From assembly GCA_001783525.1 (NCBI GenBank), contig MFMS01000006.1, positions 21,074-85,073 of the forward strand: a stretch of 64,000 nt of DNA. The letters run 5' to 3'. This document shows, piece after piece, positions 3,905 through 33,644 of the stretch (position 1 is the stretch's first letter; the number at the start of each line of letters is the position of its first letter). The notes below the pieces were generated by a model that did no database searches, was not told the origin of the DNA, and worked only from the letters and a program-made list of their open reading frames with translations. The DNA comes from Candidatus Kaiserbacteria bacterium RIFOXYB1_FULL_46_14 (GTDB lineage: Bacteria; Patescibacteriota; Minisyncoccia; Phycocordibacterales; UBA918). The position numbers and the translations under genes were made by a program.

Positions 3905-4696
3905 CTAGAGCGCTATTTCTATTGAAACTGGGCAGTGGTCAGAGCCGGAGACATCGGGGTGAATGGCGGCTTTCTTGATAAACGAGCGTAAATTTTCATC
4001 TGCCATTACATAGTCGATACGCCAACCAACGTTGCGTTCTCTAGCTTGAGCAAAATGTGACCACCAAGTGTAGTGTCCATTATCTTGGTGAAACAAACGA
4101 AAACTATCTACGAAGCCAGCGGCCAGCATATTATCAATGCCGTGACGTTCTTCTTCCGTAAAACCCTTCTTTCCTTTGTTCTCCTTCGGACGGGCCAAAT
4201 CTAGTTCGGTATGTGCCACATTCAAATCCCCGCAAAAAATCACTGGTTTCTCACTCTGGAGTTGTTTCATGTAAGTTAGGAAGGCAGCGTCCCACTGCTT
4301 GCGGGCAGGCAGGCGAGAGAGGTCGTCCTTAGCATTTGGAGTATAGACGGAGGTGACGAAGAAATGCTCAAACTCCAGAGTCGTGACACGACCTTCTTTG
4401 GCAGTATCGCCATAAGAATCCTTTAAATCAAAGGCTTTTTTGATATCTTCTGGCAAACCATAATATTCTGCCTCGGGAGCGATTTTGGTAAAAATAGCCG
4501 TGCCGGAGTAGCCTTTTTTCTCTGCTGAGCACCAATACTCATCATATTCAGGAAGATCTACCTCGCTCTGGCCTTGTTCGGCCTTGGTTTCCTGCAAACA
4601 AAGAACGTCCGGTTGATGTTTCTCAATAAAAGGTGCGAAAAAACCTTTCTTATGGACTGCCCGAATGCCATTTACGTTCCACGAGTAGATTTTCAT
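3905..4696 (-). CDS. xthA: Exodeoxyribonuclease III
   Basis: MKIYSWNVNGIRA...LCLQETK, and full-length similarity pattern of the ExoIII/AP endonuclease family. Confidence 0.9.
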   Translation of the reverse strand: MKIYSWNVNGIRAVHKKGFFAPFIEKHQPDVLCLQETKAEQGQSEVDLPEYDEYWCSAEKKGYSGTAIFTKIAPEAEYYGLPEDIKKAFDLKDSYGDTAKEGRVTTLEFEHFFVTSVYTPNAKDDLSRLPARKQWDAAFLTYMKQLQSEKPVIFCGDLNVAHTELDLARPKENKGKKGFTEEERHGIDNMLAAGFVDSFRLFHQDNGHYTWWSHFAQARERNVGWRIDYVMADENLRSFIKKAAIHPDVSGSDHCPVSIEIAL

Positions 4697-4729
4697 CAGA
4701 ACATTTTAGCATTCATATATAATGGGTCT

Positions 4730-5371
4730 ATGAGAGTGACAAAATATGGGCATTGTTGTCTGCTTGTGGAAATTGACGGTCTGCGTGTTTTAACTGATCC
4801 GGGCATCTGGTCTCGAAATTTTGCTGATCTAACAAATATAGATGTTGTACTTATCACCCACGAACATCAAGATCACTTACACGTCGAGTCGGTACAGGCA
4901 ATATTAAAAAACAACCCCTCGGCGGAAATTATTACTAACGGATCAGTCGGTAAAATTTTGGAAGAGCACAGTATCGTTCATACCGTTTTAGAAGGACGTG
5001 ACACTGCCAATCGTGCTGAAGTCGCCATCGAAGCATTTGACGGGCCCCACGCTACGATATTTGAAAAGTTTGGCCTAGTGCAGAACACCGGTTATTTTAT
5101 TGCCAATCAATTCTTCTATCCTGGTGACGCTTACATTGAACCCAATATGACAGTCGCCGTGTTGGCGCTTCCCGTCGCTGGGCCGTGGTGTAAAGCAGAA
5201 GATGCTCTAAACTACGCTATCGCGGTAAAGCCGAACAAAGCATTTCCGGTACATGACGCTGTTCTCGGTGAAAACGGCATCAACTTAGTGCATGGTCTGT
5301 TTGAAAACGTACTTAAAACGAAAGGTGTTATCTTTGAGTCTCTCAAAGAAGGCGAATCAAAGGAATTTTGA
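4730..5371 (+). CDS. MBL-fold metallo-hydrolase
   Basis: HEHQDH metal-binding motif. Start taken at Met 4730 (MRVTKYGHCC) because the track's 4574 start would overlap xthA. Confidence 0.7.
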   Translation: MRVTKYGHCCLLVEIDGLRVLTDPGIWSRNFADLTNIDVVLITHEHQDHLHVESVQAILKNNPSAEIITNGSVGKILEEHSIVHTVLEGRDTANRAEVAIEAFDGPHATIFEKFGLVQNTGYFIANQFFYPGDAYIEPNMTVAVLALPVAGPWCKAEDALNYAIAVKPNKAFPVHDAVLGENGINLVHGLFENVLKTKGVIFESLKEGESKEF

Positions 5372-5372
5372 G

Positions 5373-6458
5373 CTAGCGGCCCTGGCCATAGATACTGCGG
5401 AGGTTTTTGACATGCTCTTCGTAAGTAGCTGAGCAATAAAAATTGTTGTTGTTATGAAAATAGAAAAGACAATCGGTATTGACTGGATTTAAGGCAGCAA
5501 CAACTGCCTCCAAAGACGGGTTAGAAATCGGTGTCGGCGGCAGACCTTTGTTCTTATATGTATTGTAAGGAGAGTTGATGTACTTATCGGCCGGTACCGG
5601 AACAGGCCACCAGGTGGCGGTCTCGGGCCTACTGCCCTTAGCGTATTGTAATGTGGCATCAAGCTGAAGCGGCATATTGATAAAAAGACGATTCCAAATA
5701 ACACCGGAAATTTCACGCATATCCTCAAAATCATAGGCCTCGCGTTCTAGTAGAGAGGCAATGATTAGAGCATCGGCCAACGGCAAGCGATCTTCTGCGC
5801 CATTCTGATAACGAGCGACTACCTCACCAGCAAAACGTTCATTCACCAACTTTGCTACTTCTTCTGGTGAAGCGCCAATAGCAACCAAGTAACGCTCAGG
5901 AAAGAACTTTCCCTCAGTTAAAACTGGTTCTTCGGCAGTCACTAGCGAAAGAAACTTCGCTCTGTCCTCACGACTCCAGCCTAAAATGTCGCCAAAATTC
6001 TTTGCCACTTCTTCTTTGCGCTCGCCCGAGAAGACAACGAGTAAGCGACCGCCAGGAATGGCCATTTGATACCAAGAGGAGTTGGTTAACTTGGCGAGGA
6101 AACGGGCAATGCGTCCCGACGGCACGAGAGCGGGGAACTGCCATCGTAAACGGCCCGAGTTGGCAAGAAAGTTGTCGAGCGAAGGGTCTTCTATGATTGT
6201 CTTGTTTCCTGGATCAACACTGACTGGAAAGGGGGCGACTTTGATCCCTGAATCATTAGTCGGAAAAGATAGGGTAGCAACAGTATAAACAGTAAGAGCT
6301 GTAAATAAGACCACCACCAATATTACAGCCCCATACAAAAAACGTACGGCCAGACGAAACTGGGCGGGAAAAATTGGCTGGCGTAAAGTGCGAAAAGCCC
6401 GGGCGTGAAGTAAGTGTTGTTCTATCCTTCGCCAAGCACGTTTGAATGAACGTTTCAT
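5373..6458 (-). CDS. mltG: Endolytic murein transglycosylase MltG (YceG family)
   Basis: N-terminal TM helix. C-terminal NSPYNTYKNKGLPPTPISNP signature of YceG/MltG. Confidence 0.85.
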   Translation of the reverse strand: MKRSFKRAWRRIEQHLLHARAFRTLRQPIFPAQFRLAVRFLYGAVILVVVLFTALTVYTVATLSFPTNDSGIKVAPFPVSVDPGNKTIIEDPSLDNFLANSGRLRWQFPALVPSGRIARFLAKLTNSSWYQMAIPGGRLLVVFSGERKEEVAKNFGDILGWSREDRAKFLSLVTAEEPVLTEGKFFPERYLVAIGASPEEVAKLVNERFAGEVVARYQNGAEDRLPLADALIIASLLEREAYDFEDMREISGVIWNRLFINMPLQLDATLQYAKGSRPETATWWPVPVPADKYINSPYNTYKNKGLPPTPISNPSLEAVVAALNPVNTDCLFYFHNNNNFYCSATYEEHVKNLRSIYGQGR

Positions 6459-16414: not shown

Positions 16415-17233
16415 ATGGTAACGAAAAAATTTGAAACCAAAAAATCACTAGGCCAGCACTTTTTAAACAATCCAGTTGTTCCGCGTTGGCTCGCGGACGC
16501 GGGTGAGGTGACCGTGGGAGATGTTGTATTAGAGATTGGCCCAGGTACCGGTGCTTTGACACGAGAGCTTTTATCGCGCGGTGCTAAGGTTGCCGGAGTG
16601 GAGGCAGACCCGCGCGCCATTGCGGTACTAGAGGAAGAATTTGGAGCTGAGATGGATACCGGCCAGTTTCGCCTTCATCACGCGGACGTTCGACGGTTCG
16701 ATCCAACCATACTAAACCTGAAAGATCACCAGTTTAAACTGGTGGCAAACATCCCTTACTATCTGACAGGACAACTTTTCCGTACTTTTTTATCCGGCAA
16801 CTTACAGCCGTCGTCACTAGTGTTTTTAGTACAGAAGGAAGTCGGTAAACGAGCGACCGACGGTTGCGAGAAAGGGGGCAAGGAGTCACTGCTTTCACTC
16901 TCGGTTAAGGTCTTTGGCGATCCTATATATGTGAAGACCGTCGGGAAAGGTCATTTTTCTCCGCCGCCAAAAGTGGACTCCGCCATCGTAAAGGTGTCGA
17001 ACATAAGTAGGGATAAGCTAAAAGGGCTAGACCCGGAATTCTTCTTTCAAATACTACATTACGGTTTTGGGTCTAAACGCAAGCAACTGCTTGGCAATTT
17101 GGCTAAGTTTTACCCCCGCACGTTACTTTTGGAGCACTTTTCTGCCATCGGTATCGACCCAGCCGCTAGAGCAGAGGACATACCTTTAGACATCTGGATA
17201 AAACTGAGCGAGCACCTCAGTAGAGTAGGGTAA
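16415..17233 (+). CDS. rsmA: 16S rRNA (adenine1518/1519-N6)-dimethyltransferase
   Basis: KKSLGQHFL...VLEIGPGTGALT SAM motif. KsgA family length. Confidence 0.9.
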   Translation: MVTKKFETKKSLGQHFLNNPVVPRWLADAGEVTVGDVVLEIGPGTGALTRELLSRGAKVAGVEADPRAIAVLEEEFGAEMDTGQFRLHHADVRRFDPTILNLKDHQFKLVANIPYYLTGQLFRTFLSGNLQPSSLVFLVQKEVGKRATDGCEKGGKESLLSLSVKVFGDPIYVKTVGKGHFSPPPKVDSAIVKVSNISRDKLKGLDPEFFFQILHYGFGSKRKQLLGNLAKFYPRTLLLEHFSAIGIDPAARAEDIPLDIWIKLSEHLSRVG

Positions 17234-17306: not shown

Positions 17307-18146
17307 ATGGCGTTAGATTTACGTACGATTTTGGCATTTGTTATTGGCGGTGTTCTTCTCACTGGCGCTTTTTTCCTGAGGCCAGACCCGACCACCACAT
17401 CCAACACTCTAGCTAGCAAGAGTGCCTTTTCTTTACGGAACTTTATTCCAGTAAAGGACAGCGACAACAACGGCATCCCAGATTGGCAAGAACCATTTGC
17501 TGTCGGTACGATCAACCTAGATCGCACAACTGGCGTCAGCACATCGACCCTTACCGGACAATTAGTAATGTCCCTTGCCGACTACTTATCCGAAGGGGAC
17601 AAAGCGCCAGAGGAAGTGTTGTCACTTATTGGTAGCGAGCTGATGACGAGCGCCACTGATCCACAATACGGAAATGAAGATATAAATATAATCAGCGACA
17701 ACAGCCCTGTCGCCCTGCGTGCTTATGGCAACGCAGTTGCCTTGATCGCTACTAGATATCCACTACCAGCCAATACTAAAAATGAGATGGTCATTTTCAA
17801 TGATTCATTCTCACAAAATGACCCTGAACTTTTAAAGTCTCTTGATCCAATCATTTCTTCCTACAAAAAAGTGCGCGACGATATGTTGGAAATACCGGTA
17901 CCATCTTCTATGACCCGAGAACATTTATCCCTGACAAATGTTTATAACGCGCTTGCCATCGATATTCGTGGCTTTCGCAAAGTTCACGAGGATGCTCTAA
18001 CATCAACCCTTCGTCTTCGTCGCTACCCATCAGACGCCGCCGCTTTACAAGCAGCAATCTCCAACCTGTATCTAAAATTGCACCAAAGCGGGATACAATG
18101 GAGTGACGCTGACGCCGCTTCTAAATTTATAGAAGTGCAATTGTGA
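17307..18146 (+). CDS. Hypothetical membrane-anchored protein (first gene of the secretion-like locus)
   Basis: N-terminal TM helix, no recognisable domain. Confidence 0.5.
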   Translation: MALDLRTILAFVIGGVLLTGAFFLRPDPTTTSNTLASKSAFSLRNFIPVKDSDNNGIPDWQEPFAVGTINLDRTTGVSTSTLTGQLVMSLADYLSEGDKAPEEVLSLIGSELMTSATDPQYGNEDINIISDNSPVALRAYGNAVALIATRYPLPANTKNEMVIFNDSFSQNDPELLKSLDPIISSYKKVRDDMLEIPVPSSMTREHLSLTNVYNALAIDIRGFRKVHEDALTSTLRLRRYPSDAAALQAAISNLYLKLHQSGIQWSDADAASKFIEVQL

Positions 18147-18147
18147 T

Positions 18148-19737
18148 ATGTCTGTTTATAAATTTTATCCAAAAGTCCTGCTAGCAACTGTACTACTTTT
18201 TGTAGTCAGCATAAACGGGCTAGCTCATGCACAAATCACTACTGGTCTGACCGATGCCCTCACCAACACTGACCTTTCGAGCAATGATTCTAAAAAAGGC
18301 GACCCGGTACGCGTAGTAGAAGACATTTCTGAAACCTCTACCACCAACCTTATTCGCAACACACTCACTTCACAAAACACCACGGAGATTGCTAAAGGCA
18401 TTGCGGAATTGGTTGAAAAGGAAAAAACTCTAGACCCTTCCGCTTACGCGGCCGCCAAAGAATTGCAGCAGCAACTCAGCAGCGAATTTGTGAAATTTCT
18501 TGGTGGACAAGGGGAGGGGCAGGGTGGCAAAGTGCCGTTTGTGCAAAATTATGGTGCACGCGGCCAAGGAACTGCAGACAAAGTGGCCGGTGCTTATTTG
18601 TTCAATAACAAAGCTGGTGATTCAGGTGGACAATGCAACGTGGAATCATCACACAAAGTACGAACCGCTGTGTATAACTCTTACCTTAAAGCGCGCCAGG
18701 ATGCCGAGCAGGGAGGAGCGCTTGCTTGCCAAACCGAAGAATCTACAGAGCAAAATCAAAACCATACGAGCTTGCTACACAAACTGTTGGGCGACTTCGC
18801 CAACTGCCGTGATGAGCTTTGCCAAGTCTTCGACGGTCAGCGCGAACTATATTCAAGGGCGGTTGTAGCCCAAGCAGACGATCTAGAAGCAATACGAAAC
18901 GCCCAAGGGTTCATCCCCCAGAGAGTTTGTCGTGACGCTAATGATGCCAACGGCCAGTCTCGTCAAATTTGCGATATCGTGACCCCGCCTTCATTGATGG
19001 CTGACGCAGCATCGTTTAACCTAGTACAATTACCAGGTTTGAGCTTACTCAATGTCGACGAGTTTGACGAGGTCGTCTCCAATACAATGTCCAACCTGAC
19101 CAACCAAGTAGTAAACGGGCAAAATGGCGTACTTGGATTGTCTGGCAACTCAGACTACGCGCAAAATACTTTTGGAGAAAGCGGTAATCTTTCTTACGCT
19201 GACGCACTTGCTAAAGACGACATATCTAAGTATCAGAGTGGGGGTGGCGGAGGAAGTGGCGGAGAAAATAATCCAATAGCGAATAAGCTCAGAATAGAAA
19301 AAGAATTTAGCTCAATGATGGAACAAATAGTGAATGACGTCCAAGGTCTTGAGGAGAGGCTCGCCGCTAAGCGTACGGAATTCCGAAGATGTTTTGACCT
19401 AGAACTTCCCAATAGATTAGTTACTACAAAACGGGACGCCGCCATAAGTCTAGAGACATCAACAACGGTTATTGAAGTACTAACTAACCTAAATCAACAA
19501 TACAGCTCGGCTTCCAGTAGTGCCGATCGAAATGATGTCCTACGTGCTTTTATAGAGCTTAGGAATCAGGGAGCATTCCATACCAAGCAGGAAAACCAGG
19601 AACTTAAACTCACCTTCCTCAATCTGACCTTTAAGCAGTGGGTGGAGCGTTTCAAGTACGATACGGCTCTGGAAAGTAAAAGATGTGGCGGCCCATTTGA
19701 TTACGAAGGCGGAGGGGGCGGGGGCGGTAGTATTTAG
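18148..19737 (+). CDS. Hypothetical secreted Cys- and Gly-containing protein
   Basis: Signal-peptide-like N-terminus, Gly-rich C-terminus (GGGGGGGS). Its start overlaps the upstream stop, operon-style. Confidence 0.5.
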   Translation: MSVYKFYPKVLLATVLLFVVSINGLAHAQITTGLTDALTNTDLSSNDSKKGDPVRVVEDISETSTTNLIRNTLTSQNTTEIAKGIAELVEKEKTLDPSAYAAAKELQQQLSSEFVKFLGGQGEGQGGKVPFVQNYGARGQGTADKVAGAYLFNNKAGDSGGQCNVESSHKVRTAVYNSYLKARQDAEQGGALACQTEESTEQNQNHTSLLHKLLGDFANCRDELCQVFDGQRELYSRAVVAQADDLEAIRNAQGFIPQRVCRDANDANGQSRQICDIVTPPSLMADAASFNLVQLPGLSLLNVDEFDEVVSNTMSNLTNQVVNGQNGVLGLSGNSDYAQNTFGESGNLSYADALAKDDISKYQSGGGGGSGGENNPIANKLRIEKEFSSMMEQIVNDVQGLEERLAAKRTEFRRCFDLELPNRLVTTKRDAAISLETSTTVIEVLTNLNQQYSSASSSADRNDVLRAFIELRNQGAFHTKQENQELKLTFLNLTFKQWVERFKYDTALESKRCGGPFDYEGGGGGGGSI

Positions 19738-19749
19738 GTCCAGATAATT

Positions 19750-22008
19750 ATGATGCGGTTTTTACAAACACTCCTGCTTACTTTCTCACTAGTAGTCTTT
19801 ACGGCGGGCACCTTTATCGTACTTGCACCACAAGCAAGCGCCGCCGCACCTATTCCGCTTCCACAACAAAGTGACCAACAGCTGGATGAACCCGGCACGC
19901 GTATAAATACTCCGGAGAAATTACAGTTCAGTACCATATCTGGATGGGTATATAACACCCTTAAGGGAATTGGCGGTCTATTTGCCTATCTTGGAGGCAG
20001 TCTGTTTGATTACAGTCTTTCCTTGTTTGTAATGGACATGCGCGGAACCTCTGACGACTGGGGAATCACGACTGTGATCGACGAGATCTGGAAACTGGTC
20101 AGAGATATATTCAACCTATTGTTTATTTTTGGACTTATCCTGGCTGGTTTCAAACTCATCTTAGGAACTGACGAAAACGGTGCCAAACGTACGCTTGGCA
20201 CCATTATCATTGCTGCACTCTTAATCAACTTCAGTCTTTACGCTACCAAAGTGGTGGTGGACTTCGGCAACATTATGGCATCGGAAATGGCCACCTTGCT
20301 TAAAACCGAATCATCTGAGAATCCCACTAATACAAACAATGAGACCGGGGGATTAAAGGTGACTAACATTTCTGATAGTTTTGTAAAAAAAATAAACCCT
20401 CAACAAATCGTAGATAACTCATTCACATTAGAAAGAAGCGCCATTGAGGGTAATGTTATTGCGCTCAAAAGTGCCAAGGGAGAGTTAGACATAATGGACG
20501 CCCTAATAATGGGTTTAACATCTGCCTTTACCTTGACTCTGATCGGTTTCGTTTTTGCGGCTGGAGCATTCTTGATGTTTACGCGTTTTATGTACCTGCT
20601 TTTCCTGATGATGTTTTCACCAATAATGTTCCTGGGTTTTGTTCTACCTAATTTTAAGAAGAGAAGTAGTGACTGGTGGAACAAACTTTTTACGCAGACA
20701 CTGCTTGGTCCTGCCTACTTGTTTATGTTGTACATAGCTCTGAAAGCACTCGAGAATATGGAGGACATTCAGTCAGACAGTACCCTGATCAGCTACGTAC
20801 TGCTATGTATCGTAGTATGCGGCTTTGCTTGGGCCGCGCTTCTTGCGGCGCAATCAATGGGTGCCATGGGTGCCGATACAGCTGTCAAACTTGGGACAAG
20901 TTGGGGTAAGACAGTCAGAGGAGGGGTGACAGGGTTTGCCGGTAGAAAGCTCATCGGACAAGCGGCTGATAGTTGGAATCAAGGAATGGAAAAACGTGGT
21001 GTCTCTGAACAAAATGTCTTTAGACGATTTAGTTCAAACCTTGCTGGAGCAAAGTTTGGTGGTTCTGCTTCGAGTACACAGATACGAACCGCTGGGGAAA
21101 AAGCGGATCAGAAAAAGGCTCGTTATGAACAACTTTACGGAAAGCAGGTCAAGGGCGCAGCGCCAGGTACATTTAGAGGTGGGGTGATACAAGCTATTTC
21201 GGCAGGAACTACTGGCAGTCCGACTGATGATCAGAAGATTGCCATGGAGCGTTCTATCTCTGGATTAAACAATGAACAGCTTATAGAAATGCTCGGGGAA
21301 CACAAAACTGGTACCACTGAGTATGCTGCGATCGTTAAAAATATGTCTGATTCACAATACGAGACTGCCATGAAGGCCAAGCCGGAAGAGTTAGACGACA
21401 ATCTTAAGGACCAACTCACCAAAGACAAGCAAGCCGCAATCAAACAAAGTGGTTTCGAAGCGGAAATGAAAAAAGACGAAGACGCTAGGGCGGAGGCCTT
21501 TAGAAGCGGTGCTACTCCAGAACCATCCAGAAGCGATGAGAAGAAAATTGCCGACGCGTTCAAAGGTTACTCTGATGCCAAACTAAAAATACTAGGCGCT
21601 GACGAAATCGTTACACATGCCATAGATCTCAAACAATCGCAGTTTGACGATATAATGAAAAATAAAGACTACACAGATACCGAGAGAGGCCGTATCAAAA
21701 CAGCTCGCGAGGATGGCTTGTGGAATCTGTTTAATAAGGACGCGACCAGTAGAAGCGGTCTGTTTAAAAGCTTGCAGGACAAAGACATCGCAAACCTACC
21801 CAAGAAAATCATTACTGATGACCGCGCAGCTTTATACTTGACCGGTGGAGCCTTGAAAAAAATTGCCGACGACGAGAAGCTAAATGAAGGTGATAGAGAG
21901 AAGGTTAAAATTGAAATCAAGAAGAATGAACTTAGCGGTAGTAAACCTACGGCGGTAAAATACTTAAAATCCCCACAAGGTCAAGAACGATATGGAATCT
22001 GGAAATAA
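19750..22008 (+). CDS. Large polytopic membrane protein, possible VirB6/TrbL-like T4SS channel component
   Basis: Signal peptide, at least six hydrophobic helices, Lys/Glu-rich coiled-coil C-terminal half. Function assigned by context only. Confidence 0.35.
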   Translation: MMRFLQTLLLTFSLVVFTAGTFIVLAPQASAAAPIPLPQQSDQQLDEPGTRINTPEKLQFSTISGWVYNTLKGIGGLFAYLGGSLFDYSLSLFVMDMRGTSDDWGITTVIDEIWKLVRDIFNLLFIFGLILAGFKLILGTDENGAKRTLGTIIIAALLINFSLYATKVVVDFGNIMASEMATLLKTESSENPTNTNNETGGLKVTNISDSFVKKINPQQIVDNSFTLERSAIEGNVIALKSAKGELDIMDALIMGLTSAFTLTLIGFVFAAGAFLMFTRFMYLLFLMMFSPIMFLGFVLPNFKKRSSDWWNKLFTQTLLGPAYLFMLYIALKALENMEDIQSDSTLISYVLLCIVVCGFAWAALLAAQSMGAMGADTAVKLGTSWGKTVRGGVTGFAGRKLIGQAADSWNQGMEKRGVSEQNVFRRFSSNLAGAKFGGSASSTQIRTAGEKADQKKARYEQLYGKQVKGAAPGTFRGGVIQAISAGTTGSPTDDQKIAMERSISGLNNEQLIEMLGEHKTGTTEYAAIVKNMSDSQYETAMKAKPEELDDNLKDQLTKDKQAAIKQSGFEAEMKKDEDARAEAFRSGATPEPSRSDEKKIADAFKGYSDAKLKILGADEIVTHAIDLKQSQFDDIMKNKDYTDTERGRIKTAREDGLWNLFNKDATSRSGLFKSLQDKDIANLPKKIITDDRAALYLTGGALKKIADDEKLNEGDREKVKIEIKKNELSGSKPTAVKYLKSPQGQERYGIWK

Positions 22009-23390: not shown

Positions 23391-23801
23391 ATGAGATTTG
23401 AAGTACCACAATTCATTGAGATTGAAGATAAAATCTTTGGTCCTTTGACTTGGAAACAATTCATCTATGTTGCCGGCGGCAGTGGACTGGCGGTAGTGTT
23501 GTTTTTCTTCACACCATTCTTGGTGTTTATACTTTTTGGAATTCCAGTTGCCGCGCTAACATTCCTGCTTAGTTTCTACCCGGTCAATAATCGCCCTTTT
23601 TCAATCTTTATGGAGTCGGCTATTCGCTACTTTCAGGGAGCCAAGCTCTACTTATGGAGAAAACGTGGCACCGGTGTCTATCGCGGGGCAGCGGCTGATG
23701 AGGCAGGCACCCCTGCATATATGCCACCCTCTCCCACAGGAAACATAGCCTCAATCTCAAGGCGACTCGAACTTAAGGCCATTCAAAAAGACATCCACTA
23801 A
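23391..23801 (+). CDS. PrgI-like small membrane protein (T4SS-associated)
   Basis: MRFEVPQFIEIEDKIFGPLTWKQF followed by two TM helices, immediately upstream of VirB4. Confidence 0.4.
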   Translation: MRFEVPQFIEIEDKIFGPLTWKQFIYVAGGSGLAVVLFFFTPFLVFILFGIPVAALTFLLSFYPVNNRPFSIFMESAIRYFQGAKLYLWRKRGTGVYRGAAADEAGTPAYMPPSPTGNIASISRRLELKAIQKDIH

Positions 23802-23832: not shown

Positions 23833-24471
23833 ATGCCGGAGAAAAATAACACTACGCAAAATTTTGTGCCTCTGCGCGACATCAAAGATAATGTCGTGAT
23901 TTTAAAAAATGGCCAAATGAACATGGTGCTTCTAGCTTCGTCGATTAACTTTGCCTTGAAGTCGGTTGACGAGCAGGAGGCGATTTTGCGACAGTTTCAA
24001 GCCTTTTTAAACACGATTGATTTTTCTCTGCAATTTTATATTCAATCACGCCGCCTCGATATACAGCCGTATCTCGACACTTTGGCCGCTCGTGAGAGCA
24101 AGCAAGACAACGACCTAATGCGTATCCAGCTGCGTGAATATATGCAGTTTGTGAAAACCTTCACGACTGAAGTCGATGTCATGAGTAAGAGTTTTTTTAT
24201 TGTTATTCCTTACACACCAGTAACCGCCAACATCCAATCTAGTATAGGTAGTTTCAAAGAGCTGCTTGGCGGGCAAAAGAATGTATATTTTGATGACAAG
24301 AATTTTGCTGAACATAAGTTACAGCTTCAGCAGAGAACCGCATTGGTAGAACAAGGCCTATCGGCAATTGGCGTACGAACAATCTTGCTTCAAAGCGAAG
24401 AGCTAGTTGAACTGTATTATCATATCTTTAACCCAAGCGAGGCAGGAAACTTAGCACCGTCCAACAAATAG
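23833..24471 (+). CDS. virB4: VirB4/TraC-family conjugative ATPase, N-terminal fragment (split gene)
   Basis: FVPLRDIKDNVVILKNGQMNMVLLASSINFALKSVDEQEAILRQFQAFLNTIDFSLQFYIQSRR matches the VirB4 N-terminal domain. Stops at 24471, with the next ORF in a different frame. Confidence 0.6.
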   Translation: MPEKNNTTQNFVPLRDIKDNVVILKNGQMNMVLLASSINFALKSVDEQEAILRQFQAFLNTIDFSLQFYIQSRRLDIQPYLDTLAARESKQDNDLMRIQLREYMQFVKTFTTEVDVMSKSFFIVIPYTPVTANIQSSIGSFKELLGGQKNVYFDDKNFAEHKLQLQQRTALVEQGLSAIGVRTILLQSEELVELYYHIFNPSEAGNLAPSNK

Positions 24472-24475
24472 CAAT

Positions 24476-26275
24476 ATGGGAATTTTTGACTTAATCAAAC
24501 AGAAAAGTGGTATTGGTGAAAAGGTGATAGACACCGAGAGCGCTTTGATGACACTTGAAGATGTGGTGGCACCTTCAGCTATTAAGGTTCAGCCCCGAAG
24601 TATCAATGTTAGTGGGCAAAACGCCCGTGTATTTTTTACCGTCTCTTATCCTCGTTACTTAAACGACGGCTGGCTCGAACCAATCCTAAACATTGAGCGC
24701 GAGATGGATGTTTCAATAATGATCCACCCAATCGATACCGCAGAAACCTTGAAGAAATTTCAAAAAAAGGTAGCCGAGGTGCAGAGTCAGATAAACATGA
24801 ACGAGGAAAAGGGCATGGTGCGTGACCCTCAACTCGAGGCTGCCTACCGAAACCTTGAAGATTTGCGTGACAAGCTGCAACAGGCCGAGGAGAAATTGTT
24901 TGATGTTGGTCTTTACGTGGCTGTTTATGGCGCAAGTGAAGAAATTCTTAATGAGACCGAATCAGAGATAAAGGGTATTCTTGATTCCCGCCTGGTCTAT
25001 CTAAAGCCAGCACTCTTTCAGCAGGAGCAGGGCTTCCGCAGTGTTATACCGACTGGATCTGATGAGCTAATGGTGCACAGCAAGTTCAACTCGAGCCCAC
25101 TTTCTAGCTTTTTTCCATTTACTTCATTCGACCTCACTAGTGACACCGGGATTCTTTACGGCATCAATCGCCACAATTCTTCTCTAGTACTCTTCGACCG
25201 TTTTGCTTTGACCAACTACAACTCTGTCACCTTTGCTACCTCCGGTGCCGGCAAATCGTACACTACAAAGCTTGAGATTCTACGCTCTTTGATGTTTGGG
25301 ACTGAAGTGATAGTGATCGACCCCGAGAGGGAATACGAGCACTTGGCCGAAGCGACCGGCGGGCGCTTCTTCAACATTTCTCTTTCTAGTAGCCACCACA
25401 TCAACCCTTTTGACTTGCCTGATCCACAAGAAGACGAAGCGCCAGAAGACGTTTTACGCTCACACATCATTGAACTAATTGGTTTGTTTAGGTTGATGCT
25501 TGGTGGTCTTTCACCGGAAGAAGAAACAATTATTGATCAGGCTCTGCATGAAGTTTATGCCCTTAAGGACATCAATGGCGACGTCAGTTGGCAAGGTTTG
25601 GAGCCGCCACTCCTTTCTGACTTTGAAATGGTATTGGCAGGAATGGAAGGTAGCGATTCACTCATCGCCCGTCTCCAAAAGTACACGGCTGGCACTTGGT
25701 CGGGCTTTATGAACAAGCCTACCAACGTTGATATCCACCAGAAATTTATCGTTTTCAGCTTGCGAGACATGGAGGATGAGCTGAAGACAATTGCGATGTA
25801 TATCATCACAAACCACATCTGGAATATGATTAGACGCCGCCTCCAGAAGCGCCTTCTCGTGATCGACGAGGCTTGGTGGATGATGAAGAGCGAAGATACG
25901 GCATCGTTCCTTTTCTCACTCGCCAAGCGCGGCCGTAAATACTATCTAGGCATAGCTACCATTACTCAAGACGTTGACGACTTCCTTCGCTCTCCGTACG
26001 GCGTGCCAATGATTACCAATTCTTCATTGCAATTTTTGATGAAGCAATCAGCTACCTCGATTGATCTGGTGCAACGCACCTTTAACCTAACGGACGAGGA
26101 AAAACTTCTACTTCTAGAGAGCAACGTGGGGGAGGGCATATTTTTCGTTGGACTTAAACACGTCGCCATCAAGGTGATTGCGAGTTACACAGAGGACCAG
26201 ATTATTACCTCTGATCCTTCACAAATTCTCCAGATCAAGCAGGCCCGAGAGGAGCTTCAAGCGGCTCAAAAATAA
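24476..26275 (+). CDS. virB4: VirB4/TraC-family conjugative ATPase, central and C-terminal part with Walker A/B
   Basis: Walker A ATSGAGKS, Walker B LLVIDEAWWMM. Begins 4 nt after the upstream stop, frame 2 versus frame 1, no SD. Confidence 0.8.
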   Translation: MGIFDLIKQKSGIGEKVIDTESALMTLEDVVAPSAIKVQPRSINVSGQNARVFFTVSYPRYLNDGWLEPILNIEREMDVSIMIHPIDTAETLKKFQKKVAEVQSQINMNEEKGMVRDPQLEAAYRNLEDLRDKLQQAEEKLFDVGLYVAVYGASEEILNETESEIKGILDSRLVYLKPALFQQEQGFRSVIPTGSDELMVHSKFNSSPLSSFFPFTSFDLTSDTGILYGINRHNSSLVLFDRFALTNYNSVTFATSGAGKSYTTKLEILRSLMFGTEVIVIDPEREYEHLAEATGGRFFNISLSSSHHINPFDLPDPQEDEAPEDVLRSHIIELIGLFRLMLGGLSPEEETIIDQALHEVYALKDINGDVSWQGLEPPLLSDFEMVLAGMEGSDSLIARLQKYTAGTWSGFMNKPTNVDIHQKFIVFSLRDMEDELKTIAMYIITNHIWNMIRRRLQKRLLVIDEAWWMMKSEDTASFLFSLAKRGRKYYLGIATITQDVDDFLRSPYGVPMITNSSLQFLMKQSATSIDLVQRTFNLTDEEKLLLLESNVGEGIFFVGLKHVAIKVIASYTEDQIITSDPSQILQIKQAREELQAAQK

Positions 26276-26278
26276 CCT

Positions 26279-26731
26279 ATGGAGGTAAACGTCCAAAATT
26301 TGAAACGAACGGCAATAGTCTGGCAAACTTTTTTGCGTACATTGATGGTAACTTCGGTGTTTTATCTAGCCTTTCAACTCTACTTCGGCATAGCTTGCCT
26401 AACAGGAGCGGCCATACTTTTTGGCATAGATAGTTCTTTCGTACTTACCGGGGCAGACAAGCTTACTTTCGGTACAGCAAGCTCGGCCAGTGGCGTTTTA
26501 TTCATAATAGGTATGGTCGGTGCAATGTTGTGCGGCCTAATCACTTTTGTTGTCTCAGCGGCAATATTTGCGACCAGTAAATGTCGCATTCTCCATGGTT
26601 TTAGCCTGCTCATCCTCGCCGTATGCACCGTTACGTTGCTTATGCCAATTCTTAATTTATTTCCCATAATGTGGTTTTGGAATTGGTACATTGGTTGGTC
26701 AAATTTGAAAATTGCCCAGAGAGGAGCGTGA
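26279..26731 (+). CDS. Small polytopic membrane protein (4 TM)
   Basis: Hydropathy only. Confidence 0.45.
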   Translation: MEVNVQNLKRTAIVWQTFLRTLMVTSVFYLAFQLYFGIACLTGAAILFGIDSSFVLTGADKLTFGTASSASGVLFIIGMVGAMLCGLITFVVSAAIFATSKCRILHGFSLLILAVCTVTLLMPILNLFPIMWFWNWYIGWSNLKIAQRGA

Positions 26732-26743
26732 TATTATATTTGA

Positions 26744-27484
26744 ATGAGACCATTGCTAGCATTGCTACTCATGGCCAGTCTTAGCTGGCCACTTTCCACA
26801 AACGCCTTTACTTCTGGTTTGTTTCAGCTACTCAAAGTTGGTGGTGAAAGCAAAACAAGTGAGCAGACCACCACCACACCCGCCAACATGCGCATGGACT
26901 TGGTAGTAGAAGCAGAGACTTACACACCACATTTTTATCGTGGCCGAGCTGAGCCAGTAGCTGGCGCAATAATGCGCCTAGTAGCTTTACCAGAAGATAC
27001 AACTGCGGTGGTTAAGTATCGTTGGCAGGTCGGAGGAAAAACGATAAGCGAAGATAGTCAAACAATAAGAGTAACCGCCCCTAGCGGAGTCAACGAAGTG
27101 GTGGTGGATGTTTCCGCTTTGGACAAAAATGGCAACGTTGCAGGTCGCACTACCAACTACGTACCGTTATCTACTCCTTCATTGTCTTTTTATGAAGTGA
27201 ATCCTCTGCGTGGAGTTTCAGCAATAGCAATAACTAGCAATCTAACCCTAATCGGTGATGAGGTCACGGTGCACAGTGAGCCATATTTTATAAACTCTCT
27301 CTCATTAACTAACGTAATCGGTGAATGGAACACCGGCCAGTTAAACAATGTTCCTAACGACGACTGGAGTACTATGACGATTCTTCGTACCAACGACGTG
27401 TCCAGTACAAGAGTGACCCTGCAGGGTAGCAACCCCAGCACCCTTACCGAGACATTTGGCGGGAGCTTTATATTAGAAATATGA
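26744..27484 (+). CDS. Hypothetical secreted protein
   Basis: Signal peptide MRPLLALLLMASLSWPLSTNA. Confidence 0.5.
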   Translation: MRPLLALLLMASLSWPLSTNAFTSGLFQLLKVGGESKTSEQTTTTPANMRMDLVVEAETYTPHFYRGRAEPVAGAIMRLVALPEDTTAVVKYRWQVGGKTISEDSQTIRVTAPSGVNEVVVDVSALDKNGNVAGRTTNYVPLSTPSLSFYEVNPLRGVSAIAITSNLTLIGDEVTVHSEPYFINSLSLTNVIGEWNTGQLNNVPNDDWSTMTILRTNDVSSTRVTLQGSNPSTLTETFGGSFILEI

Positions 27485-28113
27485 AACGATACATTCTATT
27501 AATAGCCGTAGCGATGATCTTACCAGTTGTTGTCTTTGGTGCGGAAGGGACAACTGTAAATACTTTTATAGACAATATACCGTTCTTGAGTGGAGAAAAA
27601 ACTACCCAAGCCTTTGTGGACGCGATGTACAAACTAGCCATTGCTCTAGCTTCTATCATCGTGGTGATTCGTCTGATGATGGCTGGCGCTAAGTATATGT
27701 TGTCTGACGTTGTGTCTAGTAAAAGTAAGGCTAAGGAGGATATAAAGAACGCACTTTTTGGACTTTTGATTATTCTTGGAGCAGTGCTGTTACTCGGCAC
27801 CATTAACCCAAAATTAGTCGGGTTAAACTTTTTAAACGACGCGTCTAAACTAGACATAAAAAATCAAGACACCGACGTAATAGATAAGATTAAACTCAAG
27901 CCAGGAGACTCCATTACAGGAGCGAGACTCGCCGCCACATGCAACACTGGTCTTGTTTCAACACAAGACCAGTGTGTAAAAGACAACCTGGAACAGGTAT
28001 TGCGCAGCTGTAAAAATAATGGTGGCAGTAGGCTCAATAAGTATGTCACGCCCGGTATTAGCTATGAATCCGGTGCTATTGGTTACTCCTACTATTCATA
28101 TGCCTGCGAATAA
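27481..28113 (+). CDS. Pilin-like membrane protein (possible TrbC/VirB2-like)
   Basis: Signal peptide plus two hydrophobic helices (AIALASIIVVIRLMMAG, LFGLLIILGAVLLLGTI), with a C-terminal Cys-containing extension. Confidence 0.3.
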   Translation: MKRYILLIAVAMILPVVVFGAEGTTVNTFIDNIPFLSGEKTTQAFVDAMYKLAIALASIIVVIRLMMAGAKYMLSDVVSSKSKAKEDIKNALFGLLIILGAVLLLGTINPKLVGLNFLNDASKLDIKNQDTDVIDKIKLKPGDSITGARLAATCNTGLVSTQDQCVKDNLEQVLRSCKNNGGSRLNKYVTPGISYESGAIGYSYYSYACE

Positions 28114-28117
28114 CACT

Positions 28118-29344
28118 ATGTCCAAAAATATACTTATTATCATTGGAGCTACTACCGTCATACTTCTGATCGGAGCTTGGGGGTATTTATTTCTTTTTGG
28201 TGCGCCAGGTAGTGTCACGCAAGTACTGAACAATTTACGTTCACCAGACACCCCTTACGAACAGCCAATCACAGGTTCTACTGACACCACCGTTGCAATC
28301 GGTAATAAAAACTTAGCTCAACTGACCACCAAATCTACCGCTGGCTTTGTTCTCATTAAGACAGCCTCCGGATCAGCTGTCCGTTATGCAGAAAAGGGGA
28401 CCGGCCACATCTACGAGATAAATCTCACGAGCGGCACTGAAGAGCGTATTGGCGGTACAACATTTGCCAATACCGCAGAGGCCTACTTCAGTGGTGATGG
28501 TTCCGAGATTATCTTAGTTACTATTGACGGCACTGACCGCAAGGTCGTATGGCGAAGATCTATTGATTCAGCTGAACCTATTGCTTTACCTGCCAATAGT
28601 TACGACTTCGCCTGGAACGACGACGGGGTACTGCGTTACACGGTTAAAGAATCGGGTGTCACGGTTGCCTATGAGAACCGTGACGGTAATCCACAAGAAC
28701 TCTGGCGCACACCACTGTCAGATGTCCGTGTATTCTTCAATCAGTCAGAGACCTTCTTAGTAAACAATCCCGCACCAAGACTATCTGGCGGATTATATGA
28801 GGTTAAGGACAACACCCTAGTTAGAGAGGCCGGACCTGAATATGCATTTACGGGGATGCCCGACCCAACTGGCCAATTTTTGCTTTACCGCTATTTTGAT
28901 ACAGAAAACCAAACGGCAGTGGCAAAAATACTAGACACTTACTCTAACCAGGAAACCATATCGGCTTTACCAGCTGTTCCAGAAAAATGCGCGTTTAGTC
29001 CAGCAAAACAGCGTGTATGGTGTGCTTCCTCGTTTATGCTACTTTGGCGCGATCGTGAGTACTTGAACAAATGGTATCGTGGCGAAGTATCGTCACCCGA
29101 CTCTTTGTGGGTATCAAACTACAATAATTTTGAGTCAGCTAGTCTGGTCGTGGACTTTTCTGAAGAAGCTGGCTTCGACATCGACGTGGTGGATATGAAA
29201 GTTTCCGATGATGGAGCAATGCTTCTTTTCCGAAACAAGATCAATGACGCCTTATGGATGTATCGCTTGAGCGAAGTAAGTGGGGAAGTGGAGCAAGAGC
29301 CAACTAGCGAGGTGGTGGGTGCAACAACTACCGATGCTTCCTAA
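28118..29344 (+). CDS. Hypothetical membrane-anchored extracytoplasmic protein
   Basis: Start chosen at Met 28118 (MSKNILIIIGATT), directly after the upstream stop. N-terminal TM helix; beta-rich body. Confidence 0.45.
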   Translation: MSKNILIIIGATTVILLIGAWGYLFLFGAPGSVTQVLNNLRSPDTPYEQPITGSTDTTVAIGNKNLAQLTTKSTAGFVLIKTASGSAVRYAEKGTGHIYEINLTSGTEERIGGTTFANTAEAYFSGDGSEIILVTIDGTDRKVVWRRSIDSAEPIALPANSYDFAWNDDGVLRYTVKESGVTVAYENRDGNPQELWRTPLSDVRVFFNQSETFLVNNPAPRLSGGLYEVKDNTLVREAGPEYAFTGMPDPTGQFLLYRYFDTENQTAVAKILDTYSNQETISALPAVPEKCAFSPAKQRVWCASSFMLLWRDREYLNKWYRGEVSSPDSLWVSNYNNFESASLVVDFSEEAGFDIDVVDMKVSDDGAMLLFRNKINDALWMYRLSEVSGEVEQEPTSEVVGATTTDAS

Positions 29345-30050
29345 CAACAAACTCCTGTGCTATCGCCATCAAGTTACTGACAGTGAAGTAGAGCGCCACT
29401 GAAGCAGACATAGTGTAGGCCACAAAACCAATTACCGCTGGCAAGACGTAACGCATATTAATATTCATACTGCGAGCAAAGTCCGCCTTCATATCGCTCT
29501 CTCCCTCCTTACGCGGTTCTGGTTTTGGCAGTGACAACTGTGCGTGTATAAACTGCGTCAGACCAGCCAAGACTGCCAACGGCCAGCTCTTACTCGCGAT
29601 ATCGACAATACCAAGGAAGATCATATCAACAGTCTCTGGTGTTGGTATAAAAGAATACAGTGACTCAATGTTGATATTTGGTAACGGTTGTCCGCCGCCA
29701 CTGTAAACGGAGAAGTAGAGAGCAAAGATGATCGGTATCTGCAAAAACACCAAGAAGATACCAGAAAAAGGATTGAGTTTAACCTCACGATAAAGCGCCA
29801 TTGTTGCCCGAGCCAAAGCCTCGCGGTCATCTTTGTATTTTTCCTTCAATTCTTTCAACTTCGGATCTAGTTCCCGCATAGTTTTCTGCATCTTGGCCGC
29901 CTTGATGGAAAGCGGTAGCAAAACTACTTTCACCAACACGGTAATAGCAATGATAGAAAGACCAACGTCACCACCTGGAATAGCGTCAATGAAAAAAACT
30001 AGTCCGTTGTAGATAGGATCAAAGAAAAAAGTGTGCCAGACAAACGACAT
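29328..30050 (-). CDS. yidC: Membrane protein insertase YidC (short form)
   Basis: YidC/Oxa1 family helices (VKVVLLPLSIKAAKMQKTMRELDPKLKELKEKY...). Confidence 0.85.
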   Translation of the reverse strand: MSFVWHTFFFDPIYNGLVFFIDAIPGGDVGLSIIAITVLVKVVLLPLSIKAAKMQKTMRELDPKLKELKEKYKDDREALARATMALYREVKLNPFSGIFLVFLQIPIIFALYFSVYSGGGQPLPNINIESLYSFIPTPETVDMIFLGIVDIASKSWPLAVLAGLTQFIHAQLSLPKPEPRKEGESDMKADFARSMNINMRYVLPAVIGFVAYTMSASVALYFTVSNLMAIAQEFVVRKHR

Positions 30051-30792: not shown

Positions 30793-32187
30793 GTGGTTGT
30801 AATGGATATGAATCAAACCTCATCTGCGATTAACAACGGGTTTATCGGTACAACAGAGATAGACATAAAAAAACTCTGGGATGATGCTTTGGTTAATATC
30901 GAACTCTCCATCACACCAGCCAACTTCAAGACTTGGTTCAGGGACACTCGTATAGTTTCTATCGAAGACGGCACTATAACGCTCGGTGTGCCGAGTGTAT
31001 TCGTAAGAGACTGGTTGCGTGACAAGTTCCAATCGATGATTCTGAAGGTTCTGCGCGACCAAGCAACGTTTATTAGAGGTATCGAGTACGCTGTGGTTAG
31101 TCGTACCGAAAAACGCCAAGAGAACAGGCAGCAGAGCATCAATGCGTCTCTTCCACTTGAAGAGTACTACATCAACAAAAGCGACAACCTAAACCCTCGT
31201 TATTCGTTTGATACTTTTATCATCGGGCCTTTCAACGCGCTGGCACACACCGCCGCCAAGACCGTCAGCGAACGCCCCGGCATAACCTACAATCCGCTAT
31301 TTATTTACGGTAAGACTGGCCACGGCAAGACCCACCTCATACAAGCAGTAGGGAATCACCTTAAGCGTTCTGGTGCCAAAGTGTTCTATGTGACCGCTGA
31401 ACGATTTACGGTTGACTACTTCAACTCTCTTCAGAGTGGAACCGCCAATAGTTTCAAAGACAAATACCGTCAGTACGACGTATTGATAATGGACGACGTG
31501 CAATTCCTAAACAGCAAAGAAAAGACGCAAGAAGAACTTTTCCACCTCTTCAACACAATGCATGACAACAACAAACAGATTGTGTTTTCGAGTGATATTC
31601 ACCCGTCTTTGCTATCTGGAATGGAGGAACGCCTACGCTCACGCTTTGCGGCTGGTATGATCGTTGATATTCCAGCACCAGACCTAGAATCCCGCGCCGC
31701 TATCTTGCGTGCCAAAGCGGCCCAGAACAACATCACCCTTTCTGACGAGGTGGTTGACCACCTAGCTGAGTCGATCAACGGAAACATCCGTGAACTCGAA
31801 GGTGCCCTCAACTCGATCATGTGCCAATCGCAACTCCTGGGCCGAATACTATCTCTGTCAGAAGTTCAGGTAATAATTAAAAACAGTGCCAAGCCCCGCC
31901 GTAACCTAGCAGTATCCGACGTAGTTGATAAGGTGGCGCAATACTTCAGCATCGATCCTGCCAGTATCTACGAAAAGACCCGCCGCAAAGAGGTTGTGAA
32001 ACCACGTCAGCTTATTATGTACATTCTGCGTGAAGACTTCGCGGTTTCCTATCCAACTATCGGTCAAAAACTAGGCGGTCGTGACCACACCACAGTGATC
32101 CACTCCTGCGAAAAGATAAAAGCCGAACTTCAAAGAGACAGTTCTCTAGAAGAAGAGGTGACACAACTCCGAGCACTACTAAAATAA
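30793..32187 (+). CDS. dnaA: Chromosomal replication initiator DnaA
   Basis: AAA+ Walker A GKTGHGKTHL, C-terminal DNA-binding HTH (VSYPTIGQKLGGRDHTTVIHS). An alternative start at 30802 is possible. Confidence 0.92.
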   Translation: MVVMDMNQTSSAINNGFIGTTEIDIKKLWDDALVNIELSITPANFKTWFRDTRIVSIEDGTITLGVPSVFVRDWLRDKFQSMILKVLRDQATFIRGIEYAVVSRTEKRQENRQQSINASLPLEEYYINKSDNLNPRYSFDTFIIGPFNALAHTAAKTVSERPGITYNPLFIYGKTGHGKTHLIQAVGNHLKRSGAKVFYVTAERFTVDYFNSLQSGTANSFKDKYRQYDVLIMDDVQFLNSKEKTQEELFHLFNTMHDNNKQIVFSSDIHPSLLSGMEERLRSRFAAGMIVDIPAPDLESRAAILRAKAAQNNITLSDEVVDHLAESINGNIRELEGALNSIMCQSQLLGRILSLSEVQVIIKNSAKPRRNLAVSDVVDKVAQYFSIDPASIYEKTRRKEVVKPRQLIMYILREDFAVSYPTIGQKLGGRDHTTVIHSCEKIKAELQRDSSLEEEVTQLRALLK

Positions 32188-32546: not shown

Positions 32547-33644
32547 ATGAAAGTGACTCTGAACCGGGATGGTTTTTATAATTTACTGGAGTTGGTGGGG
32601 CGAATCAGTACCAAACACATAACCCTACCGGTTTTACAGTGTGTGTTGATCGAAGCTAGGGAAGACAATAAAGTTGTTTTGCGTGCTACTAATCTCGAGA
32701 TAGCAATTGAGGCTGTTTTGGATGCTGAGGTTGGGGAGGTTGGAAAGGTGGCTGTTCCGGCATCAATTCTTTTACAGACAGTGAATCTTATTAACCAGAA
32801 GTCCATATCCCTACGTTTTACAGAAAACAGCCTGGAGGTTGACGGTAATGGCTCAAAGACACAGATAAAAAGTATTCCCCATGAAGAGTTTCCATCCATT
32901 CCGCAAGTGTCTGGAACGGGGCAGGTTATAAACGGGGCTTTGTTCAGTCTGGGTATCAAGTCCACAGCTTTTGCCGCCTCTTTGTCTTCAATCAAGCCGG
33001 AACTCGGCAGTGTTAATGTTTTTCAGAAAAAAGAACATACTCTAACCTTTGTTTCTACTGACTCTTTTCGTTTGTTTGAAAAGACCGTACCACAAAAAAG
33101 TGTTGTGCTAGACGATGCTATTCTGATTCCACAAAAAAACGCACTAGAGATTGCTCGAGTTTGTGATGTTGTGGGAGGTGACCCGCGAATGAAGGTGAAT
33201 GACCACCAACTAGCTTTAGAGTTTGAAAGCGGTGTCACCATCACCTCGCGGTTGGTGGCTGGTACTTTTCCTGATTATGAACAGATTATTCCAAAGGAGT
33301 ATTCGACCCACACCACTCTCCTCAAAGAAGACTTGTTGCACGCCTTCAAGAAGACAAATATATTTTTGAACAAGTTTTTCCAAGTAGGACTTAGCTTCAA
33401 CAAGGATTCGGTAACAGTGTCTGCGGGGAATAATGATGTTGGTAACACGACTGAATCTATCAGGGCCTCTACCGATGGTGAGGATCTCTCGTTAAACTTT
33501 AATCAGCGCTACATCTCTGAAGCTTTACCACACCTTAGCGACGACAGTATCGTTATCCATCTTTCCGGTATTGGACGACCGATGGTTATTAAGGGGGTGA
33601 ATGATATGTCAGTCCGATACCTAGTAATGCCGATGAACAAATAA
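32547..33644 (+). CDS. dnaN: DNA polymerase III beta sliding clamp
   Basis: 365 aa, three-domain beta-clamp pattern, positioned after dnaA. Confidence 0.9.
   Translation: MKVTLNRDGFYNLLELVGRISTKHITLPVLQCVLIEAREDNKVVLRATNLEIAIEAVLDAEVGEVGKVAVPASILLQTVNLINQKSISLRFTENSLEVDGNGSKTQIKSIPHEEFPSIPQVSGTGQVINGALFSLGIKSTAFAASLSSIKPELGSVNVFQKKEHTLTFVSTDSFRLFEKTVPQKSVVLDDAILIPQKNALEIARVCDVVGGDPRMKVNDHQLALEFESGVTITSRLVAGTFPDYEQIIPKEYSTHTTLLKEDLLHAFKKTNIFLNKFFQVGLSFNKDSVTVSAGNNDVGNTTESIRASTDGEDLSLNFNQRYISEALPHLSDDSIVIHLSGIGRPMVIKGVNDMSVRYLVMPMNK

Follow-up and report, generated by a model that had tools for sequence, protein, structure and literature searches.

A VirB4-type ATPase of Candidatus Kaiserbacteria probably encoded by two separate genes, the first resembling TrsD

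The window analysed here, a 64-kb stretch of the genome of Candidatus Kaiserbacteria bacterium RIFOXYB1_FULL_46_14, contains a VirB4-type locus in which one open reading frame (ORF1) is followed by another in the next frame (ORF2). The first-pass annotation had described a VirB4 distributed over two ORFs in different frames, with the second ATG 4 nt past the first stop, the Walker A and B motifs on the second ORF and a combined length of 811 aa. All of these particulars were reproduced, and the cluster reads as follows.

23391..23801, + strand: small membrane protein, PrgI/VirB3-like, 136 aa (Pfam PF12666 PrgI, E 3.8e-9, 37.4 bits against a cut-off of 27)
23833..24471, + strand: ORF1, putative TrsD-like/TraC-like protein, 212 aa, frame 1, stop codon TAG at 24469-24471
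24469..24478, + strand: junction, comprising the TAG of ORF1, a 4-nt spacer (caat, 24472-24475) and the ATG of ORF2, in frame +1 relative to ORF1
24476..26275, + strand: ORF2, VirB4-type ATPase, 599 aa, frame 2, ATG at 24476
25235..25258, + strand: Walker A motif ATSGAGKS, ORF2 residues 254-261
25853..25870, + strand: Walker B motif LLVIDE, ORF2 residues 460-465
26279..26731, + strand: 150-aa ORF directly 3' of ORF2, without a family match, a context gene of the cluster
27481..28113, + strand: candidate VirB2-like T4SS pilin, 210 aa (PF18895 T4SS_pilin, E 9.5e-5, 22.8 bits, below the cut-off of 26.6)

Behind a TAG at 24452-24454, frame 2 stays open from 24455 onwards, and thus already 17 nt ahead of the ORF1 stop. 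The small ORFs 3' of ORF2 match no family, and the 150-aa ORF is also present in L082 and L083. The genes yidC, dnaA and dnaN are located less than 7 kb downstream of the cluster and ksgA upstream of it. ORF1 is identical to the GenBank entry 'hypothetical protein A2392_02225' of the same bacterium.

ORF2 has the features of a VirB4-type ATPase. It scores 372.9 bits against the NCBIfam family NF045971 (conju_CD1110), above the cut-off of 325, carries both Walker motifs, and can be aligned through residues 220-579 with the solved C-terminal ATPase domain of VirB4 (PDB 4AG5, E 2.5e-42); it also matches PF19044 P-loop_TraG (E 1.3e-27). A complete N-terminal region is absent from the ORF2 chain, as the CD1110 match covers profile positions 180-733 of 752 and positions 1 to about 180 fall on ORF1. 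Since 4AG5 covers ORF2 residues 220-579, ORF1 is the first module only, and the other half of the VirB4 N-terminal region lies on residues 1 to about 220 of ORF2. The earlier designation of ORF1 as the canonical VirB4 N-terminal domain therefore stands with respect to homology, but not with respect to extent, the second module being on ORF2. The start codon of ORF2 and its N-terminus, MGIFD, are conserved among the orthologues.

The relationship of ORF1 to VirB4 appears real but, judged by sequence, modest. ORF1 matches the NCBIfam profile VirB4_plasma (E 9e-12), positions 4-153 of TIGR00929 (E 1.3e-4) and positions 2-101 of the CD1110 profile. The score against the TrsD/TraD family (NCBIfam NF041427) is 22.8 bits (E 6.5e-5), far under the cut-off of 200, which places ORF1 as a remote relative outside the staphylococcal TrsD subfamily as NCBI delimits it. 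PF26593 (TraC-like) is the precomputed Pfam match for the identical 212-aa protein and for every listed homologue; a local Pfam scan of ORF1 returned no family, possibly because that copy of Pfam is without the PF26593 model. Searches of the PDB by sequence, with ORF1 as a single sequence or as a 90-sequence profile, matched nothing meaningful, and it was by structure comparison only that a link to TrwK/VirB4 emerged within the PDB. The 14 best PDB matches of the AlphaFold2 (AF2) model of ORF1 (pLDDT 78) are all TrwK/VirB4, with E values from 5e-4 and moderate TM scores of 0.39-0.46. The order of secondary-structure elements is similar in the models of ORF1 and of the start of ORF2, which raised the idea of an internal duplication, one fold occurring in ORF1 and again in the first 200 residues of ORF2; this was rejected, as hhalign assigned the pair a probability of 1%.

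Among 1.84 billion cluster representatives, ORF1 has 2171 relatives at E <=0.001. The best 150 of these are nearly all 150-450 aa long, some homologues bearing long additional low-complexity tails (e.g., P0294, 432 aa); full-length proteins account for two, one of 797 aa and one of 898 aa. The former, P0285, falls in a clade whose members, for the most part annotated as Candidatus Colwellbacteria, are 775-807 aa long and combine PF26593 and P-loop_TraG. Such single chains align collinearly with ORF1 and then ORF2 (alignment A2), in accordance with the earlier suggestion to compare the locus with single-ORF VirB4 proteins: ORF1 spans the single chains from residue 1 to about 213, conservation of ORF2 sets in at about residue 228, and the segment in between is variable. 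In the 898-aa relative, a Pro/Ala-rich linker of about 100 residues separates the modules. In the same alignment, MAFFT placed the N-terminal MGLFDFIKP of ORF2 over the C-terminal ELYYHIFNP of ORF1, which we consider an alignment artefact and not a duplicated junction.

The AF2 model of P0285 (mean pLDDT 74.6, with a less confident linker) matches full-length TrwK/VirB4 of plasmid R388 with an E value of 1e-26 and a TM score of 0.66. The collinearity of the single chains, together with the match of both the P0285 and ORF1 models to TrwK, indicates that ORF1 and ORF2 jointly compose one complete VirB4, cut in the linker between modules, and in the alignments the break falls where this linker varies in length and sequence among the single-chain relatives. 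The lengths are similar: ORF1 plus ORF2 add up to 811 aa, the Colwellbacteria-type proteins have 775-807 aa and the TrwK chain (PDB 7O41/8RTD) has 823 aa. What sets the window apart from both kinds of single-chain VirB4, with which it is otherwise collinear, is the presence of two ORFs, the linker being interrupted at about residue 212.

Comparison across species reveals that the division is a conserved feature. In a collection of 5.8 billion proteins, the 120 best homologues of ORF1 are all 181-227 aa long and the 120 best homologues of ORF2 are all 593-612 aa long. A scan restricted to one genome per species recovered 79 loci with relatives of ORF1 (35-92% identity), from Kaiserbacteria, Nomurabacteria, Uhrbacteria and many other Patescibacteria. 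In all 77 species loci that hold both parts, these are two separate, adjacent ORFs. Relative to ORF1, ORF2 starts in frame +2 at 35 loci and in frame +1 at 22; at the remaining 20, a stop codon separates two ORFs that share a frame. In at least 75 of the 77, the start of ORF2 lies past the ORF1 stop, without overlap. Spacers range from 1 to 1410 nt but are mostly 1-11 nt: 61 loci have spacers of <=12 nt, 10 of 13-100 nt and 6 of >100 nt, and some spacers contain other genes. Two loci (L002 and L006) carry between the two genes a 119-aa gene of the 23S_rRNA_IVP family flanked by inverted repeats of 25-27 nt, and the 1410-nt insert separates the ORF1 and ORF2 counterparts of a third (L062). The same two-gene arrangement, which the first-pass annotation had named as an observation that would settle the matter, is thus found in close relatives, in three frame relations and with varied spacers. 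A truly disrupted copy occurs elsewhere, in L084, with a deletion of about 100 codons and a change of frame.

L001, the other species closest to the window, is 92% identical to it in ORF1 and 97% in ORF2; there the pair shares a reading frame, with a TAG in between and a spacer of 6 nt. The exact junction of the window is also present in two independent assemblies, from JGI and Logan, in which ORF2 is identical. Between the window and L001, codon differences that are only synonymous number 92 in ORF1 and 271 in ORF2, against 16 amino-acid-changing ones in each; we give raw counts instead of dN/dS, as synonymous sites are saturated even in the comparison with this closest species. ORF1 and ORF2 are each under strong purifying selection.

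A two-gene arrangement of TrsD and VirB4 is already known for this phylum of ultra-small bacteria and for pGO1-type plasmids. In a published survey, no T4SS component is more abundant in Patescibacteria than TrsD, of which there are 2,272 homologues, 1,664 of them associated with VirB4; it is without an assigned function, the list of essential genes of Ca. S. epibionticum ML1 includes its homologue, and the TrsD-VirB4 clusters are often near dnaA, dnaN and ksgA (PMC12102498, Microb Genom 2025). The cluster in the window, close to yidC, dnaA, dnaN and ksgA, conforms to this picture. As in the published pairs (PMC12102498), the two genes stand side by side, with a PrgI/VirB3-like gene upstream and a VirB2-like pilin candidate nearby, and we see no substantive difference that would make the window anything other than one more example. 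Single-chain forms joining TrsD and VirB4, as in the Colwellbacteria-type clade, are unmentioned in that study, which does mention VirB3-VirB4 fusion proteins in some conjugative systems (PMC12102498). In the latter, VirB3, the VirB4 N-terminus and the ATPase modules are likewise repartitioned among genes, although there by fusion and here by fission, with PrgI/VirB3 remaining a separate gene in the window.

The staphylococcal plasmids pSK41 and pGO1 (NC_005024 and NC_012547; MPF_FATA, pGO1 subclass) offer a parallel in gene layout. Both have the order trsC, trsD (227 aa) and trsE (672 aa, DUF87), so that a small membrane protein, a protein of about 220 aa and a DUF87/VirB4 ATPase of 600-670 aa follow one another as they do in the window. 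The 136-aa PrgI/VirB3-like gene sits where the plasmids have trsC, and the position of ORF1 between the PrgI/TrsC-like and VirB4 ATPase genes is that of trsD. The staphylococcal systems are plasmid-borne and conjugative, whereas the system in the window is chromosomal and near dnaA. A profile of 90 ORF1 sequences aligns with pSK41 TrsD over 175 columns (7-202 versus 32-217 of 227; hhalign probability 80.6%, E 1.3e-5), a homology that is nearly full-length but remote, with 17% identity. Residues 16-567 of ORF2 match residues 28-617 of pSK41 TrsE by BLASTP (E 3e-35, 24% identity). Because the C-terminus of ORF1 aligns with that of TrsD, and residue 16 of ORF2 with residue 28 of TrsE, VirB4 is broken at the same point in ORF1/ORF2 and in trsD/trsE.

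The absence of a Shine-Dalgarno (SD) sequence had been noted for ORF2, and indeed there is no GGAG, GAGG or AGGA upstream of the ATG at 24476. As a sign of disruption, however, the observation does not hold: such a core lies at -20 to -4 in 4 of the 47 long ORFs of the window, which is the background, random positions giving 9%, and at 2 of the 77 orthologous ORF2 starts. The missing SD at ORF2 consequently carries no weight; its absence is the norm in these genomes and uninformative on this gene. In most species, ribosomes finishing ORF1 may go straight on to translate ORF2, and with spacers of <=12 nt in 61 of the 77 loci such termination-reinitiation coupling is plausible. Judged from the loci with spacers of 40-1400 nt, coupling would not be obligatory, and SD-independent initiation, the norm in this genome, could serve ORF2 instead.

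Taken together, these data make it very probable that ORF1, a TrsD-like first module, and ORF2, the remainder of VirB4, are two real, separately translated genes of a chromosomal T4SS-like system. The first-pass annotation had left three readings side by side, namely an authentic frameshift (pseudogenising or programmed), a sequencing indel and a real two-polypeptide VirB4, and it is the last of these alone that the evidence supports. An assembly indel, a pseudogene and uniform recoding are excluded because the split is conserved, the frames vary, the assemblies agree and both ORFs are under purifying selection. That a sequencing or assembly error has divided a single 811-aa gene was a natural suspicion for two ORFs 4 nt apart in different frames with short homopolymers nearby, yet the JGI and Logan assemblies have the identical junction, all 77 other species are split with differing spacers and frames, and the start codon and MGIFD N-terminus of ORF2 are conserved, so that the chance of such an error is negligible. 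Hardly any probability attaches, likewise, to inactivation of VirB4 by a real frameshift in this lineage. Single-chain relatives of about 790 aa do exist, and L084 exemplifies genuine disruption elsewhere; against this, ORF1 and ORF2 are intact and conserved in 77 species at 35-92% identity, synonymous changes far outnumber replacements in both, the ORFs of L001 are in frame with a stop between them, and the TrsD homologue of Ca. S. epibionticum ML1 is reported to be essential (PMC12102498).

The joining of ORF1 and ORF2 into one chain by programmed +1 ribosomal frameshifting or stop-codon bypass would be favoured by the very short spacer of most species and by the opening of frame 2 ahead of the ORF1 stop. 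We regard it as very improbable, since the frame relation is spread over all three frames (35, 22 and 20 loci) and is the same frame in L001, at least 75 of the 77 ORF2 starts lie downstream of the ORF1 stop and do not overlap it, and spacers of 42-1410 nt occur, some with other genes inside. No conserved slippery sequence was seen at the junction in the 77 loci. The only candidate stretch for recoding in the window, AAC AAA TAG C, was set aside: it is without a stimulatory SD, and the comparative data rule out a uniform mechanism. A different alternative accepts ORF1 as a real gene but sees in its product an accessory factor acting independently, related by common descent to the VirB4 N-terminal region and not docked as a VirB4 domain. 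The long low-complexity tails of some homologues, such as the 432-aa P0294, would suit such a factor. That ORF1 neighbours the ATPase gene at all 77 loci speaks against this alternative, as does its covalent attachment to the ATPase in the Colwellbacteria-type clade, in a chain whose model has the complete VirB4 fold, and we consider it unlikely.

If ORF1 and ORF2 are indeed two parts of one VirB4, ORF1 would contribute the TrsD-like first N-terminal module, about 210 residues long, and the second one, together with the ATPase domain, would come from ORF2. At the membrane, beside the PrgI/VirB3-like protein, the two polypeptides would presumably form a VirB4-like unit through non-covalent contacts, with the TrsD-like protein docking on the ATPase subunit and providing its membrane-proximal first module. 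In the structure of the R388 system, the VirB4 N-terminal region contacts the tails of VirB3 and VirB8. The PrgI/VirB3-like gene immediately 5' of ORF1 fits this picture. Why the first VirB4 module, or TrsD, should be a polypeptide of its own, and what role it plays, are questions already raised for Patescibacteria (PMC12102498).

For annotation, our results mean that a frameshift or pseudogene flag on this VirB4 locus should be avoided and that ORF1 (A2392_02225) can be named a TrsD-like/VirB4 N-terminal module protein. Beyond this locus, neighbouring ORFs in different frames and without an SD are normal in SD-poor genomes of Patescibacteria and constitute no evidence of disruption. Finally, the break point common to Patescibacteria and pGO1/pSK41 may be a shared derived character, a reading that we put forward tentatively and consider possible rather than probable. 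If true, it would link the patescibacterial T4SS to one particular group of monoderm conjugation systems, the pGO1 subclass. The conserved MGIFD at the start of ORF2 could, in this reading, act as a docking peptide that receives the detached module; the single chain of Candidatus Colwellbacteria would then be a secondary re-fusion, and the N-terminal linker of VirB4 a repeatedly used hinge of fission and fusion.

A truly disrupted VirB4 is found at L084, a related-genome locus (GCA_964368705.1, 1282-3458), where a protein 88% identical to the single-chain Colwellbacteria-type VirB4 has residues 1-89 and residues 193-796 in different frames, with about 100 codons lost. A VirB4 that has really been frameshifted or deleted looks like this, unlike ORF1 (the trsD-like gene) and ORF2 (the virB4 ATPase gene) of the window. 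The start residues of ORF2, MGIFD, MGILD or MGLFD (window 24476-24490; orthologous starts at loci L001-L063), are kept in about 60 species, whereas the single-chain relatives have a variable linker at the equivalent stretch. This conserved N-terminus could be a docking or start-context signal peculiar to the split form.

The surroundings of the T4SS cluster comprise the following features:
16415-17233: ksgA, upstream of the cluster
17307-18146: 279-aa ORF, directly upstream of the cluster
18148-19737: 529-aa ORF, directly upstream of the cluster
19750-22008: 752-aa ORF, directly upstream of the cluster
26279-26731: ORF inside or beside the cluster
26744-27484: ORF inside or beside the cluster
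28019-29344: ORF inside or beside the cluster
29328-30050, minus strand: yidC, adjoining the cluster
30793-32187: dnaA, adjoining the cluster
32547-33644: dnaN, adjoining the cluster
With yidC, dnaA, dnaN and ksgA as neighbours, the cluster is placed near the probable replication origin, as has likewise been reported for Paceibacteria (PMC12102498). No Pfam match was obtained for the three large upstream ORFs (17307-22008) or for the three further ORFs inside or beside the cluster, and all six may be lineage-specific T4SS components.

Shine-Dalgarno cores are essentially absent from the genes of this genome, occurring at 4 of 47 long ORFs in the window, which is the background level. At several genes (examples at 32547, 14433, 17307 and 63161, the last on the minus strand), TATAAT-like hexamers lie merely 7-13 nt 5' of the ATG, as upstream of dnaN ('gctataattgccattATG'). 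This pattern suggests mRNAs that are leaderless or carry a very short leader.

Insertions separate the trsD-like gene from virB4 in the spacer of some relatives:
L002, 4635-5034: cassette
L006, 4623-5016: cassette
L062, about 4634-6043: insert of 1410 nt
The cassette gene encodes 119 aa matching Pfam 23S_rRNA_IVP (E 7.9e-36) and is flanked on both sides by inverted repeats of 25-27 nt; with protein-coding genes on either side, this IVS-type element resembles a small mobile cassette. Read by eye, the L062 insert apparently contains two 23S_rRNA_IVP-type genes and an additional PrgI-like ORF.

Finally, two proteins of the cluster weakly match, below the family cut-off, the NCBIfam model SCO6880, an actinobacterial family of 477 positions: the PrgI-like protein (23391-23801; residues 14-103 against positions 12-94) and ORF2 (24476-26275; residues 64-194 against positions 345-476). 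These paired matches hint at a third module partition in Streptomyces, in which one chain would combine a VirB3-like module with the VirB4 N-terminal region, without the ATPase.
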